DNA of 64,000 bases from Candidatus Kaiserbacteria bacterium (lineage in GTDB: Bacteria > Patescibacteriota > Minisyncoccia > Phycocordibacterales > Phycocordibacteraceae). Both the position numbers and the translations under genes were made by a program. Below the pieces are notes generated by a model. It searched no databases, was not told where the DNA came from, and saw only the letters and a program-made list of their open reading frames with translations. The stretch spans positions 90,461-154,460 of the forward strand of contig JACPGH010000006.1 in assembly GCA_016182485.1 (NCBI GenBank), in the 5' to 3' direction. Positions 13,690-61,153 of this stretch are shown in pieces. Every line of letters starts with the position of its first letter. The stretch's first letter is position 1.

Positions 13690-13758
13690 CCTGTGAAGGT
13701 CTGACCTTCACAGGTGCACATATATACAGTTAGCTTGTGAAGGTCTGACCTTCACAGG
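13690..13758. repeat. Pair of palindromic repeat elements (core TGTGAAGGTC-T-GACCTTCACA), locus A
   Basis: Copies lie at 13690-13714 (12-bp arms CCTGTGAAGGTC/GACCTTCACAGG) and 13734-13758. They sit between the convergent dedA-like and dsbA-like 3' ends. Confidence 0.8.
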
Positions 13759-27415: not shown

Positions 27416-27436
27416 TGAACGACCCCCCGAACGATT

Positions 27437-27475
27437 CAACGGGCCCGCGCCTCGCGCGGGCCCGTTCACTTTTTG
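27437..27475 (+). terminator. Intrinsic terminator
   Basis: GGGCCCGCGCCTCGCGCGGGCCC stem followed by GTTCACTTTTT. Confidence 0.7.
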
Positions 27476-27544
27476 AATGTTAATCCCTTCTTCGCACTTG
27501 ACCATATATAGGTATCCGCGGTATGTGTGAACACATACATTTAT

Positions 27545-37991: not shown

Positions 37992-38040
37992 GGCCGGGGG
38001 GAATCGCACGGAAAAGCGATTCCCCCCGGCCGCTTTTTAT
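37992..38040 (+). terminator. Strong intrinsic terminator immediately upstream of prmC
   Basis: 16-bp stem GGCCGGGGGGAATCGC/GCGATTCCCCCCGGCC with an 8-nt loop, followed by GCTTTTTAT. It lies 29 nt before the prmC start. No + strand CDS lies upstream. Confidence 0.6.
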
Positions 38041-38068
38041 ACACCTCCCGGCGGGCTATTATTTCCAG

Positions 38069-38884
38069 ATGACAAAGGATGAGCGGACGCTTCTCGAAGA
38101 GAAATACTGGGGAAAACGTTCTGCGGCATATGAGGAGGATCGCGAGCGGCTCGCCCTCGGCGAGCCGCTCGCGTACGTCATCGGCTGGCAGCCGTTCCTC
38201 GGATTGAAGATATACCTTGATTCCAAGCCGCTCATCCCCCGCCCGGAGACGGAATGGTGGACGGAGCTGGCGCTACACGAGGCACAGCGGCGTTCGTTCG
38301 AGGACGTGTCGCAGCGCGACGGCGCGAGACACAGCAAATTTTCAGCAGAAAATTATGCGCGTCCGAGAGCGGACGCCGCTGTGCCTCTCACATTCCTCGA
38401 TCTTTGCTCCGGCTCGGGAGCGATAGGCTGTGCCGCACTCGCACAGTTGCCGCAGGCTCGCGTCTTTTTCGGAGAGATCGACGAGGCACATCGCGACACG
38501 ATCCTGAAAAATATCCGCAAAAACGGCTTGGACCAATCGAGGGCCGATGTCCGTATCGGCGACTTGTTGGAACCGTTCGCCAGCCTGAAGTTCGATATCA
38601 TTGCCGCTAATCCGCCGTATATCCCGAGCGGACGCGCCCTATCGCCGAGCGTGTCCGCGCACGAACCTAAAGGGGCGCTCTACGCGGGAGGGGACGGCCT
38701 CGCTGTCATTCGCCGTATCGCCCGGGAACTTCCCCGATACCTCGCTCCCGGCGGCATGACGTGGATCGAGTGCGATTCGGAATATGCCGAAACTGCCGGC
38801 TCCTTGTTTGCGAGTCAGGGGTTGCAGTTTGAAATACGCACAGACCAGTACGGCCGCCCTCGCATTATCCGCGTGACTCTCTAA
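38069..38884 (+). CDS. prmC: Release-factor glutamine N5-methyltransferase (HemK/PrmC)
   Basis: NPPY motif (IAANPPYIP) and a SAM-binding motif (DLCSGSGAIG). Confidence 0.8.
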   Translation: MTKDERTLLEEKYWGKRSAAYEEDRERLALGEPLAYVIGWQPFLGLKIYLDSKPLIPRPETEWWTELALHEAQRRSFEDVSQRDGARHSKFSAENYARPRADAAVPLTFLDLCSGSGAIGCAALAQLPQARVFFGEIDEAHRDTILKNIRKNGLDQSRADVRIGDLLEPFASLKFDIIAANPPYIPSGRALSPSVSAHEPKGALYAGGDGLAVIRRIARELPRYLAPGGMTWIECDSEYAETAGSLFASQGLQFEIRTDQYGRPRIIRVTL

Positions 38885-42809: not shown

Positions 42810-43495
42810 AATCCTCATTCACGATACCCATCGCGATCATAGCGGGTGGGCTCATCGTGGCGGGGGCGGTGTATGTCTCGTCCTACCGGTCAAAAGTGAC
42901 GGGCGGAAATCCCGCGCTAGTGCGACCCGTAAGCGCGTCGGACCATATCTTCGGGAATCCGGCGGCTCGCGTCATGATCGTCGAATATTCGGACTTCGAC
43001 TGCATTCCCTGCAAGGAATTCGAGGTGATTTTGCGTCAAGTAGTCGCGAGCGAAGCGGCAAGCGGGAGCGTCGCGCTGGTATTCCGCCATTTTCCGCTCA
43101 CGGAGCTGCACCCCAACGCGCTTGCGCTCGCCAAAGCCGCGGAATGCGCAGGAGAAGCCGGCGGCAACGAGGCTTTCTGGCGCTTTGCCGACGCGCTCTT
43201 TGCGAATCAGCCGGTCTCTCCGTCTGGGCTAGGCGCTCTCGCGATGCAAGCTCGAATTCCTGGCAGCGGCGCGGATACTGATGGAAATACGTTCGCGACC
43301 TGTTACGCGAGCGAATCGGCATCCAAACCGCTCGTGGAGCGCATTATGAGAGACCGTCAAAATGCCCTGGACATGGGCGCGCAAGGCGCGCCGTACACGG
43401 TCATTTTGAGAAGCGGAATGGCTCCGATCGTCATGAACGGCGCCTACTCCTACTACGCCGTAAAAGAGCTCGTCAACCGCGCGCTCGGCAAGTGA
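42806..43495 (+). CDS. DsbA-like thiol:disulfide oxidoreductase, membrane-anchored
   Basis: CIPC active site (YSDFDCIPCKEF). The start at MKSSFTIPIAIIAGGLIVAG (ATG 42806) overlaps the upstream stop (ATGA). Confidence 0.7.
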   Translation: MKSSFTIPIAIIAGGLIVAGAVYVSSYRSKVTGGNPALVRPVSASDHIFGNPAARVMIVEYSDFDCIPCKEFEVILRQVVASEAASGSVALVFRHFPLTELHPNALALAKAAECAGEAGGNEAFWRFADALFANQPVSPSGLGALAMQARIPGSGADTDGNTFATCYASESASKPLVERIMRDRQNALDMGAQGAPYTVILRSGMAPIVMNGAYSYYAVKELVNRALGK

Positions 43496-43537
43496 AAACC
43501 CTGACACTAAGCCACGGATCCGGGAGTCGACTCCGGA

Positions 43538-44076
43538 AAGATTGACAAAAATCAAGCGCTGTGCTAGCGTACACCTAGATTGTACTTAATAAGGAGGTCT
43601 TTAAGCCTCGGCCAACGGAGGCTAGCGTTTAGGCGCTGGCAATAGTTGGCCAACGAGAAGTAGCTTCCGGAGCAAATGCCCCACCTAACCGTGACTGATC
43701 GAAGCAGCTTGCTTTCTGAGCGGCGAGAGAAATCGTCTTCTGCCAGGACAGTATTTGCCAGAAGATGAGCCTACGCCCCGAGGGAAGGCCAGTATGGGCT
43801 GCGAACTGAAAGTCATTCGGGCATCCTCATGAAGCGACAGAGTTTCTCGTACAGGCTCGGGATGTGCTGAGAAGAGCCGGGATAGCGGAGGCCATCGATG
43901 TCTGATGGTAATAAGCGTCCCTCGTATTGGGTGAGTTCGATCCGGCGACCTCAACGTGGTGGAGAACATCGCCATTCGCCGGGGTAGAATACTGCCCGAA
44001 ACGTAGAAAGCTCGGCCTGCAGAAGGCCCTCGGCAAAATCGGAAGGGCCCTCGACATCGTCGAGGGCCCTTTTTCA
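43538..44076 (+). ncRNA. Candidate non-coding transcript (promoter-like TTGACA, orphan SD AAGGAGGT, canonical terminator, no ORF of 15 aa or more)
   Basis: TTGACA at 43538, then TAGCGT 17 nt later. AAGGAGGT has no start codon within 15 nt. The terminator is GGGCCCTCGACATCGTCGAGGGCCC plus TTTTTCA at 44046-44076. All ORFs in the region are short or antisense-like. Confidence 0.25.
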
Positions 44077-44201
44077 TTCCTCTGCCAACTCAAAGCCTGT
44101 GGTTAGGAAATTCACATTAACCGTGATAGAAATAAAGCGGATGTGCTCGCAAGTCGAACAGTTCGACTTGCGAATTAAATCATGCCACAGCGGAGGACCG
44201 A

Positions 44202-44783
44202 GTGAACAAGCGGATCGCGGTGCTCGTATCCGGTACTGGCTCACTACTCGATGCGATGATCAAGGACGGTCTCCCGATCGACCTGGTCGTGGCTGATCGC
44301 CCCTGCCGCGGGATCGACGTGGTGACGCTAAGCGCCCAGCCGGCGATACCTGCAGCTGTTCTCTACCGCGCTAGCTACGGAAAGGGGCTAGCCTTCAAGC
44401 GGGAACTCTACACGGCCTGGCTCACGGACTTCCTGGAGCGGTTTGGCATCGACATCGTGGTGATGGCGGGCTTCATGACCGTGCTGTCCCCAATGATCTT
44501 CGAGCCAAGGCACTATGGTGGACGGATCTTGAACAGCCACCCGTCCCTGTTGCCGTTGTTCAAGGGAGATCGCGCGGTTCGAGACGCACTCGCTTCCGGC
44601 GTGCAGATCACCGGGACCACGATCCATGTCGCGACACCCGAAGTTGACAGCGGTCCCATTCTCGCTCAGGAGGAGGTGCCCATCCTCGATGGAGATACCG
44701 AGGGAACGCTCCATGAGCGTATCAAGCAGGTGGAGCGGGTCCTGTACCCCAAGACCATCCGCGCCTTCGCAGCTCACCTGTAA
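44202..44783 (+). CDS. purN: Phosphoribosylglycinamide formyltransferase (PurN)
   Basis: GTG start with GGAGGA upstream. Motifs IAVLVSGTGS and NSHPSLLPLFKGDRAVRDALASGVQITGTTIHVATPEVDSGPI. Confidence 0.85.
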   Translation: MNKRIAVLVSGTGSLLDAMIKDGLPIDLVVADRPCRGIDVVTLSAQPAIPAAVLYRASYGKGLAFKRELYTAWLTDFLERFGIDIVVMAGFMTVLSPMIFEPRHYGGRILNSHPSLLPLFKGDRAVRDALASGVQITGTTIHVATPEVDSGPILAQEEVPILDGDTEGTLHERIKQVERVLYPKTIRAFAAHL

Positions 44784-44798: not shown

Positions 44799-44969
44799 AT
44801 GAGTTCTCCACAGACGGGACTCGAGGGCGAGATCTGCTCGGACTGTCACGACAAGGGATTCGTCTGGACAGGGCCTAGGAATGACCCCAAGAACCGGATT
44901 CCCTGTGATTCCAGCGGCTGTCCCTTCCGCAAGTCGCTTCAGGAGTTGCAGGACCTTCGGCCGCGATAA
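44799..44969 (+). CDS. Small Cys-rich (CxxC...Cx4C) zinc-ribbon-like protein, 56 aa
   Basis: AAGAGGAAAC precedes the ATG at 44799. The peptide is MSSPQTGLEGEICSDCHDKGFVWTGPRNDPKNRIPCDSSGCPFRKSLQELQDLRPR. It was not in the ORF track because it is under 60 aa. It is followed by a terminator. Confidence 0.45.
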   Translation: MSSPQTGLEGEICSDCHDKGFVWTGPRNDPKNRIPCDSSGCPFRKSLQELQDLRPR

Positions 44970-44988: not shown

Positions 44989-45038
44989 CGGAGAAAGTGG
45001 CCGTCTCTCGGGACGGCCTTTCTTTTTTACATATCCAG
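44989..45038 (+). terminator. Intrinsic terminator with an overlapping alternative hairpin
   Basis: GGCCGTC-TCTCGG-GACGGCC followed by TTTCTTTTTT. An alternative stem CGAGAGACGG...CCGTCTCTCG shares the 3' arm. Confidence 0.6.
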
Positions 45039-46040: not shown

Positions 46041-46110
46041 AGTGTGAAGGTCTGACCTTCACAGAATGAGTTGGGGATAACATAGCTTGTGAAGGTCAGA
46101 CCTTCACAGC
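46041..46110. repeat. Pair of palindromic repeat elements, locus B (cores 46043-46063 and 46088-46108)
   Basis: TGTGAAGGTCTGACCTTCACA, and TGTGAAGGTCAGACCTTCACA with a central T-to-A change. They lie in the divergent promoter region between the RecB-like nuclease and a receiver gene. Confidence 0.8.
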
Positions 46111-49599: not shown

Positions 49600-49720
49600 A
49601 ATTTGAAGTTTATCGCGCTTCAAGAGATTTGACTAACTACGCGTGAGAATGTCAAAATTAAGGCAGGATTAACGAACGCTCTTTCACCGGCCAACGGGCC
49701 CGGCCCAAGAGGAGGACGCG

Positions 49721-49933
49721 ATGGCCACTATCCTTCCGAGGAAACTTACTGGACTGAGCGAGGAAGAAATACAGGAACTGGTTCCTGGTCTTGCTCGTCT
49801 CGGTCTGTTCCTCGAGTTCGCCGACCGGCAAACCGGCATCGTTAAGCGATCTCGAGACCTGCCGACGAACGCGCGGGACACTCGCGTGAGCGATCCGGGA
49901 GCGGAGAGTCGATGGCGACACATCGACTTCTGA
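49721..49933 (+). CDS. Small hypothetical protein (70 aa) with a strong SD and its own terminator
   Basis: AGAGGAGGA lies 4 nt before the ATG. It is followed by the hairpin ACGGGCGCGACC-TCTC-GGTCGCGCCCGT at 49938-49969. It sits opposite-strand between the dnaG start and the rpoC end. Confidence 0.35.
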   Translation: MATILPRKLTGLSEEEIQELVPGLARLGLFLEFADRQTGIVKRSRDLPTNARDTRVSDPGAESRWRHIDF

Positions 49934-49975
49934 CGTAAACGGGCGCGACCTCTCGGTCGCGCCCGTTCTCTATCT

Positions 49976-50050
49976 GCATGGATGTGAAGGTCTGACCTTC
50001 ACATCCATGCGCGACTATCGTTGTACCTGTGAAGGTCTGACCTTCACAGG
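49976..50050. repeat. Pair of palindromic repeat elements, locus C (35-nt perfect palindrome 49976-50010; 25-nt copy 50026-50050 abutting the rpoC stop)
   Basis: The first copy is GCATGGATGTGAAGGTC-T-GACCTTCACATCCATGC and the second is CCTGTGAAGGTCTGACCTTCACAGG. The rpoC stop codon is at 50051-50053. Confidence 0.85.
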
Positions 50051-59043: not shown

Positions 59044-61080
59044 TTGCTAGAGTACAACAAAATGCCGACAGGCAAGACGTACGAGGGCCCTATCACGATA
59101 ACCCGCAGCGGGATAGGATTTTTCCCGTTGTCGGGCGGGACTAGCCGGGATAAGAGTACGGATCTTATTATCCCGGCGGAGTGGACTGGGCATGCTCTCT
59201 CTGGCGATATCGTGAAGATCGTCCCAGCAGGTACCTACCGCGATCCAGCCGGACGAATGCCTCCGCGCGCGGCCGGAAAGGTCGCAGAGATCGTTTCGCG
59301 CGCCCGCGAAACGTTTGTGGGCACGCTCATTGAGCAGGAAGGAGCGGTATTGCTTTCCCCGGATTACAAAAAAATGCACCTGCCGATCGAGGTGCGTCCC
59401 TCGCAAAAGCTCGGGACGATCGGCGATGCGCCGATCGGATACAAAGTGCTCGTGCGGATGAGGGGCTGGGACGCAAATGCGCCCTACCCTTGGGGCGTGG
59501 TCGAAGAAGTAATCGGCAAGGCAGGCGTACACGAGACCGAAATGCGGGCCCTCGCGCTCGGGCAAGGGTTTTCGTCTGACTTCCCTCCCGGCGTTCTCGC
59601 GGATGTCAAATATCTTGAAGAGCACGGGCGCGCGATACTGGAAAAAGAAGCGCAAAATTCGAAACGCCGTGATTTCAGGGATATTCCCACTTGCACTATC
59701 GACCCGTTCGATGCGAAGGATTTCGACGACGCGCTCTCCGTGCGCCCGCTCGCGGGCGGGAATATCGAGGTGGGCATCCATATCGCGGATGTCTCCTTTT
59801 TCGTTACTCCCGAAAGCGCGCTCGACAAGGAAGCTCGCGAGCGGGCGACCTCAGTCTACCTGGTCGACCGTACCATTCCGATGCTTCCGGAAGTGCTGTC
59901 GAATGATCTATGTTCGCTAAAGCCGAACGAAGACCGCCTCGCCGTCTCTGCGGTGTTCACCCTCGACGCCGAGGCTCACATCGTAGAAAGCTGGTTCGGC
60001 GAGACGGTTATACATTCGAACAAGCGCTTCACGTACGAGGAAGCGCAGGAAGTTCTCGATCGCGGGGACGGTACGATGCATAGAGAGCTGTCGCTCCTGC
60101 TCGCTCTCTCGAAGAAAATCCGCGCGAAGCGCCAGGCCAAAGGCGCGATCGAATTCGATACCGCCGAGGTGAAAGTGGAGCTCGATGCCGACGGCCGGCC
60201 GATAGCGATCCGTCTCAAGGAACGGAAAGCGACGAACCTCTTGATCGAGGATTTCATGCTGTTGGCTAACGAAGCTGTAGCGAAGCATCTGGCCGCGCTG
60301 ACCGAAAACGGCGGCCCGCACTTCTATTCGCTCTATCGCATCCACGACGCGCCGGACGCCGATCGCATCGAAAATCTTTCCCACCTTCTGCGAATCATGG
60401 GCTACCAGCTGAAAACAGCCGGGGGGAAAGTTTCGGGAGCCGAGCTGAACAGACTGCTCGAGTCGGTGAAGGGCAAGCCCGAAGAATACCTCGTCAAGAC
60501 GGCAACGCTGCGCTCAATGAGCAAAGCAGTATACGCGACGCAGAATATCGGTCACTTCGGGCTCGCCTTCGATTTCTACACGCACTTCACCTCTCCGATC
60601 CGCCGCTATCCCGATCTGGTCATACACCGCCTGCTCAAAGCGCACGCGGGCCTTCGCCTCGCCGGAGCGGGCTTCGGCCACGCGCAGGCGGGCGGCGCGC
60701 CGATCTCGGAAGAAGAAATGCGGGACTTTGACGCGCTCGCCCTGCACGCTTCCGAACGCGAAGTCGCGGCGGCGGAGGCGGAGCGCGATTCTATAAAGAT
60801 GAAGCAGGTAGAGTTTCTCGCCGGGCGCATCGGCGAGGAATTTGACGCAGTTATTTCCGGCGTCACCGACCGGGGTTTGTATGTGGAAGAGAAAGAAACG
60901 CACGCCGACGGCATGATACGCATCCAAAACGTCGGAGACGATTATTTCGAATACGACGAGAAGCACTACCGACTCGTCGGCCGCCGCACGAAGAAGGCAT
61001 TTCAGCTCGGAGACCCCATCCGCGTTAAATTGATCGCCGCGCGCGTCCCTGAAAAAGAACTGGATTTCGTCCCAGTGTGA
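59044..61080 (+). CDS. rnr: Ribonuclease R (RNB family 3'-5' exoribonuclease)
   Basis: Cold-shock/OB N-terminus, an RNB catalytic domain (DPFDAKDFDDALSV...HIADVSFFV) and a C-terminal S1 domain. Confidence 0.9.
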   Translation: MLEYNKMPTGKTYEGPITITRSGIGFFPLSGGTSRDKSTDLIIPAEWTGHALSGDIVKIVPAGTYRDPAGRMPPRAAGKVAEIVSRARETFVGTLIEQEGAVLLSPDYKKMHLPIEVRPSQKLGTIGDAPIGYKVLVRMRGWDANAPYPWGVVEEVIGKAGVHETEMRALALGQGFSSDFPPGVLADVKYLEEHGRAILEKEAQNSKRRDFRDIPTCTIDPFDAKDFDDALSVRPLAGGNIEVGIHIADVSFFVTPESALDKEARERATSVYLVDRTIPMLPEVLSNDLCSLKPNEDRLAVSAVFTLDAEAHIVESWFGETVIHSNKRFTYEEAQEVLDRGDGTMHRELSLLLALSKKIRAKRQAKGAIEFDTAEVKVELDADGRPIAIRLKERKATNLLIEDFMLLANEAVAKHLAALTENGGPHFYSLYRIHDAPDADRIENLSHLLRIMGYQLKTAGGKVSGAELNRLLESVKGKPEEYLVKTATLRSMSKAVYATQNIGHFGLAFDFYTHFTSPIRRYPDLVIHRLLKAHAGLRLAGAGFGHAQAGGAPISEEEMRDFDALALHASEREVAAAEAERDSIKMKQVEFLAGRIGEEFDAVISGVTDRGLYVEEKETHADGMIRIQNVGDDYFEYDEKHYRLVGRRTKKAFQLGDPIRVKLIAARVPEKELDFVPV

Positions 61081-61153
61081 AGGTCTGACCTTCACACGCA
61101 TTTTATCCTTATAAATGCTCAAAAACAGCCTGTGAAGGTCTGACCTTCACAGG
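61075..61153. repeat. Pair of palindromic repeat elements, locus D (61075-61097 overlapping the rnr stop; 61129-61153)
   Basis: GTGTGAAGGTCTGACCTTCACAC includes the rnr TGA (61078-61080). CCTGTGAAGGTCTGACCTTCACAGG follows 31 nt later. They sit between the convergent rnr and smc-like 3' ends. Confidence 0.85.

Follow-up and report, generated by a model that had tools for sequence, protein, structure and literature searches.

The locus lies in a stretch of 64,000 nucleotides, hereafter the window, from the genome of a Candidatus Kaiserbacteria bacterium (CPR/Patescibacteria). A DsbA-like gene ends at position 43495 and purN begins with a GTG at 44202, leaving a non-coding gap of 706 nt (43496-44201), the largest gene-free gap in the window. 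The two flanking proteins are identical to NCBI entries with consecutive identifiers on a 178.8-kb contig, namely MBI2410123.1 (thioredoxin/DsbA-like) and MBI2410124.1 (PurN). The GGAGG of purN is placed 5 nt ahead of the GTG and about 120-125 nt past the terminator described below. Downstream of purN lies a Cys-rich ORF of 56 amino acids (orf56, 44799-44969), and the purN-orf56 unit has its own terminator near 44997-45030. As no homologue of this ORF was found among 5.8 billion proteins, it is an orphan and was rejected as a marker of the donor. The features of the gap and of the start of purN are listed in Table 1.

Table 1. Features of the dsbA-purN gap and of purN, with positions in the window. 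Secondary-structure elements are predictions.
Feature	Position	Strand	Description
Weak hairpin CCGG(G)AGTCGACTCCGG	43520..43536	+	Read from the sequence; just past the stop codon of the DsbA-like gene; not in the terminator-scan list
Promoter-like site	43542..43570	+	-35 TTGACA (43542-47), 17-nt spacer ending in TG (43562-63), -10 TAGCGT (43565-70)
SD-like AAGGAGGT	43591..43598	+	In the 5' arm of hairpin H1 (43594-98 pairs with 43605-09; element 43591..43609)
Hairpin H2	43610..43651	+	7-bp outer stem, GGAG/AAUA internal loop, 8-bp inner hairpin; pair probability ~1.0; paralogue of H4
Rod	43655..43848	+	Irregular 194-nt hairpin, 64 predicted pairs (8 G-U); MFE = centroid; z -2.45
Domain 2	43865..44035	+	Predicted four-way junction: closing stem, H4, H5, H6; z -3.54
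H4	43879-43921	+	Within Domain 2; GGAG/AAUAA loop
H5	43923-44003	+	Long hairpin within Domain 2
H6	44014-28	+	Hairpin within Domain 2
Intrinsic terminator	44041..44076	+	11-bp G+C stem, loop AUC, then U5-CA
Possible purN promoter	44103..44132	+	TTAGGA, 18-nt spacer, TGa-TAGAAA; proposed by eye only; not accepted by the scan
Perfect 13+13 palindrome TCGCAAGTCGAAC-A-GTTCGACTTGCGA	44147..44173		27 bp; 18 nt before the purN SD, downstream of the terminator
purN (SD and gene)	44192..44783	+	SD GGAGG (44192-96), GTG at 44202, 193 aa, PF00551

With regard to coding potential, the preliminary description had reported no credible ORF in the region and sense peptides of at most 12-14 aa. The first statement holds. 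The second does not, as the + strand carries a 30-aa ORF starting with ATG (43676-43768) and a 59-aa ORF starting with TTG (43927-44106), its longest open frame being of at most 63 codons. The - strand contains ORFs of 130 and 88 aa. The G+C content of the ORFs of the gap is flat or inverted across codon positions, whereas the real genes of the window show about 0.6/0.42/0.7. A Pfam search with 13 ORFs and frames of the gap gave no match, a six-frame tblastn of the gap against 86 loci found nothing, and a protein remnant sought in every frame was not found. The 130-aa ORF of the - strand had no relative among 1.84 billion (1.84e9) representative proteins. The consecutive NCBI identifiers of the two flanking proteins likewise speak against a gene in the gap. 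The reading of the gap as a pseudogene or hidden protein was rejected on these four lines (tblastn, Pfam, the search of 1.84e9 proteins and codon-position G+C). The gap is truly non-coding. We regard as scarcely credible that it hides a small protein gene, which would either start at a non-canonical codon after AAGGAGGT or correspond to the 130-aa ORF. Although the octamer is a perfect SD-like sequence and the - strand ORF does exist, no start codon lies within reach of the former and the frames close fast, and the latter has codon-position G+C values of 0.56/0.62/0.50, unlike those of real genes, in addition to the empty Pfam and homologue searches.

The gap carries several signals related to transcription. 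The hairpin located just past the dsbA stop codon is weak and not followed by a T-run; transcription of dsbA may consequently continue into the gap. The TTGACA hexamer mentioned in the preliminary description is present, at 43542-43547, and is one of 12 in the window. It could be the -35 element of a promoter, from which transcription would start near 43577. Nevertheless, the promoter scan accepted no full promoter in the gap; the TTGACA-N17-TAGCGT arrangement was rejected because its -10 element matches at 3 of 6 positions only. The perfect SD reported as an orphan is equally present, with no ATG, GTG or TTG 4-14 nt downstream. Such an orphan is unremarkable, since 8 of the 13 AAGGAGG heptamers of the window have no adjacent start codon.

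The terminator, which had been described as a textbook one at 44046-44076, is indeed canonical. Its stem is formed by GGGCCCTCGAC (44045-55) paired with GTCGAGGGCCC (44059-69) around a 3-nt loop, and is followed by TTTTTCA (44070-76). As RNA, the hairpin at 44045-69 reads GGGCCCTCGAC-AUC-GUCGAGGGCCC, followed by U5, and additional A-T and G-T pairs lengthen the stem to 13-15 bp. This element is a genuine intrinsic terminator, and its local z is -4.0 to -4.5. The rule-based terminator scan did not list it, which we read as an artefact: the rule of the tool extends the stem into the T-run, leaving fewer than five T. The palindrome located between this terminator and purN has a local z of -4.4 and is unique in the window, its sole near match (2607-2625) being inside a coding region. 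It may serve as an operator or form a hairpin in the 5' UTR.

The + strand of the gap folds more stably than expected from its composition. Positions 43577-44080, which include the terminator, fold to -215.1 kcal/mol (z -6.45). When the terminator is excluded (43538-44040), the z is -4.4 on the + strand and -0.24 on the - strand, and 12 coding controls range from +0.7 to -1.05. These values were calibrated by scanning the whole window on a 500-nt grid and subtracting the shuffled from the native energy, which gave a mean of -5.5 +/- 10.7 kcal/mol. The excess of the candidate, -28.5 kcal/mol, is reached by 9 of 254 grid segments (3.5%), which places it in the top few percent and makes it neither unique nor overwhelming. 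Terminator hairpins or a REP-like palindrome are found in nearly all of these nine segments, which score on both strands. The strand asymmetry of the candidate, calculated with boundaries chosen once its fold was known, is 26.8 kcal/mol, larger than at any of the 127 grid positions (maximum 21.4). On a 150-nt scale, the terminator and the downstream palindrome are the only individually significant elements, the local z elsewhere ranging from -0.4 to -1.9. Overall, the folding excess of the + strand is real, strand-specific and among the top few percent.

These energies bear on the possibility that the gap is a spacer with little or no function, either brought in along with purN by a recent insertion or left over from a decayed element, whose fold is incidental. 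The functional parts would then be restricted to the terminator, where the hisS-rnh-dsbA operon would stop, and to the purN promoter and operator. A folding excess within the range of 3.5% of the grid segments fits such a spacer, as do the modest 150-nt z values outside the terminator. The strand asymmetry does not, because unconstrained DNA should favour neither strand.

Other parts of the window also show marked folding. The strongest excess of the grid (-48.8 kcal/mol relative to shuffles, z -5.5) is observed on the + strand at 38001-38500, a segment in which the ORF 38069-38884 starts and which also includes a terminator-like hairpin GGCCGGGGGGAATCGC...GCGATTCCCCCCGGCC with a T-run (about 37993-38040). 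Several of the strongest segments are accounted for by a REP-like family that is unrelated to the candidate RNA. Its members are perfect palindromes, GTGAAGGTC[T/A]GACCTTCAC, present in eight copies where 0.01 are expected, and arranged as four pairs with copies 44-55 nt apart (13693-13755, 46044-46107, 49984-50047 and 61077-61150), all at gene ends or in intergenic regions. The dnaG-rpoC gap (49624-50050) measures 427 nt in this genome vs 68 nt in one relative (L087). It holds a + strand ORF (49722-49938, about 72 aa) behind AGGAGG-N5-ATG and, past this ORF, two REP-like palindromes preceded by a G+C hairpin.

The predicted fold of the candidate comprises H1, H2 and the rod (Domain 1), then the four-way junction (Domain 2) and, finally, the terminator, with 25 G-U among about 170 predicted pairs. 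In both domains the MFE structure equals the centroid, and the pair probabilities are mostly 0.9-1.0. None of 200 shuffles folds as well as Domain 2, the closing stem of which ends 5 nt ahead of the terminator. In this single-sequence prediction, the largest internal loop of the rod is 9x2 nt, another one being 0x6 nt, and there is no two-sided bubble. When the 3' arm of the terminator is blocked in a constrained fold, Domain 2 is unchanged, only a 4-bp hairpin arises, and no antiterminator appears. Domain 2 and the terminator are thus predicted to fold independently and without competing structure, as would suit an RNA gene whose transcription is terminated constitutively.

H2 and H4 share the same layout, with an outer stem, a GGAG/AAUA(A) internal loop and an inner hairpin, and their flanking arms are complementary. 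The corresponding pattern GGAGGC..GGYAATA (GGAGGC...GGYAAUA as RNA) occurs twice in the window, both times in the candidate, where 0.05 occurrences are expected. All 11 shared pairs are intact in both hairpins; two of them carry compensatory changes and four carry one-sided changes. The hairpin module is duplicated, and the retention of its pairing through these changes is suggestive, although the two-sequence statistic is not significant (124 of 500 shuffles) and the pattern was defined after the fact. A model of the module found no third copy in 866 kb. A large internal duplication relating Domain 1 to Domain 2 was rejected, 52 of 300 shuffles being as good; the short H2/H4 module alone is repeated.

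The genomic context was compared among about 20 relatives whose HisRS is 64-71% identical. The order hisS, RNase-H-like gene and dsbA is conserved, and dsbA is directly followed by a convergent gene for a PD-(D/E)XK nuclease, with a gap of 2-500 nt that sometimes contains an unrelated small ORF. Since dsbA abuts this convergent gene in the relatives, the gap, purN and the 56-aa ORF, which occupy the slot in this genome (43496-45157), constitute a strain-specific insertion. The same slot is a variable insertion site in the lineage. The closest PurN sequences are 55-66% identical and are found in other contexts (other CPR bacteria and Acidimicrobiales), with upstream gaps of 11-138 nt. The analysis shows that purN is a recent and isolated acquisition with its own, putatively regulatory palindrome, and it is a member of the same insertion as the candidate RNA region. 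A survey of the gaps upstream of purN by ORF cover was uninformative in G+C-rich genomes.

The sequence of the gap itself was found, in identical form, in five Logan contigs only, all from one study. No homologue was detected with nhmmer among the relatives' loci and the purN loci, and single-sequence covariance models of Domain 2 (R1) and of the rod (R2) each found only themselves in about 1.7 Mb of relatives' loci. No similar element was present upstream of purN in 80 GTDB purN loci and three CPR purN contexts. In six loci of DsbA homologues and 80 metagenomic hisS loci, the synteny is conserved and the RNA is absent. A mobile origin was rejected, as blastn against phages and plasmids gave no match and pattern scans of viral and metagenomic sequences gave none either. 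The comparison with related genomes, which the preliminary description had proposed for the analysis of conservation and covariation, yielded no homologue in the searched collections, so the fold draws no evidence from covariation. In two of the relatives, a gap of about 420 nt, conserved in part and absent from the window, is observed between a bPH_2 gene and hisS (L086:2726-3146 and L087:2731-3147). Its + strand is unstructured (z 0.06) and unrelated to the candidate; on its - strand, the conserved GGGAGGTGAT suggests an uncalled small gene.

This distribution fits the view of the gap as a spacer: the region is strictly strain-specific, it occurs in five contigs of a single study only, the slot is empty or filled with unrelated small ORFs among relatives, and the neighbouring 56-aa ORF is an orphan as well. 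On the other hand, the duplicated hairpin module retains its pairing despite changes, no frame contains a protein remnant, and 550 nt of dead DNA would be unusual in a genome where other gaps are mostly shorter than 300 nt. We consider a spacer unlikely on balance, and nonetheless a serious rival to a non-coding RNA.

The candidate matches none of the known families of structured RNAs. Rfam was searched at the gathering thresholds with the entire window as query, and at E<=10 with segments of 1.1 kb and 471 nt; noise matches to the terminator hairpin were all that was obtained. ARAGORN found two tRNAs and no tmRNA in the window. The suggestions of an RNase P RNA, a tmRNA, a 6S RNA, a ZTP riboswitch or a T-box made in the preliminary description are accordingly not supported. 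The lack of any match agrees with one half of the refuting outcome named there, namely no hit together with no transcription. RNase P, tmRNA, 6S, SRP, ZTP, T-box, OLE, ROOL, GOLLD and other Rfam families are excluded as far as the models reach. For RNase P RNA (RF00010/RF00011), no covariance match was obtained and the CR-I-like string forms local pairs inside the rod; 6S RNA (RF00013) gave no covariance match at E<=10, and no Rfam model of a known riboswitch aptamer (ZTP, purine, PRPP, THF or T-box) matched. A sponge of the CsrB/RsmZ type was rejected because GGA is not enriched (10 occurrences vs 12.2 +/- 2.5 in shuffles and 9 +/- 3 in genomic windows), and a repeat of the REP/MITE type because a second copy of the region or of the rod is absent from the 64-kb window. 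A search of the literature on CPR non-coding RNA classes found nothing relevant. Elsewhere in the window, the - strand at 27434-27491 resembles the DnaX ribosomal frameshifting element of Rfam, with a score below the gathering threshold (27.8 bits vs 35, E 0.05).

It is very improbable that the gap encodes a highly divergent housekeeping RNA (RNase P RNA, tmRNA, 6S or SRP RNA) that Rfam misses in the CPR lineage. The size range is appropriate, the 194-nt rod superficially resembles 6S RNA, and some strings recall, by eye only, the conserved regions of RNase P (GAAAGUC...CGGGC and CCGGAGCAA). However, these strings are the two strands of the rod and occur in the wrong order, and neither Rfam at either threshold nor ARAGORN supports any of these families. 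Such an RNA would, moreover, not be absent from the syntenic region of the relatives and yet sit in a strain-specific insertion. The resemblance to 6S RNA (ssrS) concerns the rod-like hairpin of about 190 nt and the adjacent folate/purine gene; ssrS lies upstream of ygfA in E. coli, and the cyanobacterial 6S gene lies near purK. In contrast to 6S RNA, the candidate has a rod that, in the single-sequence prediction, lacks a large two-sided central bubble, is part of a longer transcript as predicted, has no covariance match, and is absent from relatives.

The large RNAs OLE, ROOL, GOLLD, HEARO and raiA motif can also be compared with the candidate in general architecture. Like the candidate, they measure several hundred nucleotides, have a multi-domain fold with long irregular helices and junctions, occupy an intergenic position and end at their own terminator. 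These classes are defined by broad conservation and covariation. The candidate, in contrast, matches none of their Rfam models and has no detectable relative. The preliminary description had allowed for an unclassified RNA, and this option agrees with the + strand terminator, the non-coding nature of the gap and its strand-specific, well-defined predicted fold.

The position of the candidate also recalls terminating riboswitch and attenuator leaders (ZTP/pfl, purine, PRPP, THF and T-box), with a junction domain followed by a terminator upstream of purN on the same strand. Riboswitches often control genes of purine and one-carbon metabolism (ZTP, purine, PRPP and THF classes). In a cis-regulatory purN leader, Domain 2 would be the aptamer sensing a ligand or factor, and the terminator would be the expression platform controlling read-through into purN-orf56, an arrangement consistent with the closing stem located 5 nt before the terminator, itself about 125 nt before purN. 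We nevertheless judge such a leader rather improbable. No riboswitch family matches, even at E<=10, and the blocked terminator arm leaves Domain 2 as it was, without releasing an antiterminator. The sole alternative pairing (I3) reuses the 3' arm of the terminator and would therefore still terminate. The PurN homologues at 55-66% identity have short upstream gaps and the 80 purN loci have no related RNA, so the homologues of purN do not share the element. In a further difference from these leaders, the terminator is about 125 nt away from the start codon, and a separate promoter-like site and the palindrome are located in between. Pairing of the candidate in trans with the 5' UTR of purN was rejected as well, since it is no better than in shuffles, 132 of 300 of which do equally well. 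The preliminary description had put forward a long attenuating leader for purN, which is not supported in view of the folding, the purN homologues and the signals past the terminator. These signals, together with the lack of an antiterminator, favour two separate transcription units: a constitutively terminating RNA, and purN-orf56 with its own control region and its terminator near 44997-45030.

Based on these observations, the best reading of the gap is a non-coding RNA located on a strain-specific insertion, either as a stand-alone RNA of about 500 nt or as a long 3'-UTR RNA of dsbA. We propose this reading tentatively and regard it as possible, if somewhat short of probable. Its promoter, its actual transcription, its fold and any function are inferred. 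The + strand at about 43577-44076 would encode the stand-alone form, transcribed either from the TTGACA-N17-(TG)TAGCGT site or from the upstream operon. In the case of read-through from dsbA, a 3'-UTR RNA of about 580 nt would result. Like 3'-UTR-derived or terminator-sharing sRNAs, the candidate lies immediately past the stop codon that closes an operon lacking a convincing terminator, and ends at the first strong one. In contrast to these sRNAs, it would be far longer than is typical (550-580 nt), and the 3' UTR is absent in relatives, where dsbA overlaps the convergent gene. In both forms, transcription would stop at the strong intrinsic terminator (44045-44074). Domain 1 would consist of the two small hairpins and the 194-nt rod, and Domain 2 of the four-way junction. 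A protein or a tertiary contact would most likely dock at the GGAG/AAUA internal loops of H2 and H4. The terminator would insulate purN, which has an apparent promoter of its own and the palindromic operator or hairpin, and the RNA, purN and the orphan 56-aa ORF would together form an accessory insertion of this strain alone.

A bolder proposal is that the candidate is the first member of a hitherto undescribed class of large structured non-coding RNAs, of about 500 nt and two domains, carried by a small accessory insertion in CPR, in which the duplicated GGAG/AAUA hairpin would be a module docking protein or RNA. We regard this as a long shot. The genomes of CPR/Patescibacteria are small and dense and, to our knowledge, their non-coding RNA content is almost unexplored. 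The case is built on one sequence, and the candidate is of practical value as a flagged target for metatranscriptome mapping and for a Patescibacteria-wide Infernal search. If the RNA is genuine, the few large non-coding RNAs of bacteria on record would gain a structured member of 500 nt located in an accessory island, which would indicate that large structured RNAs can be strain-specific cargo.
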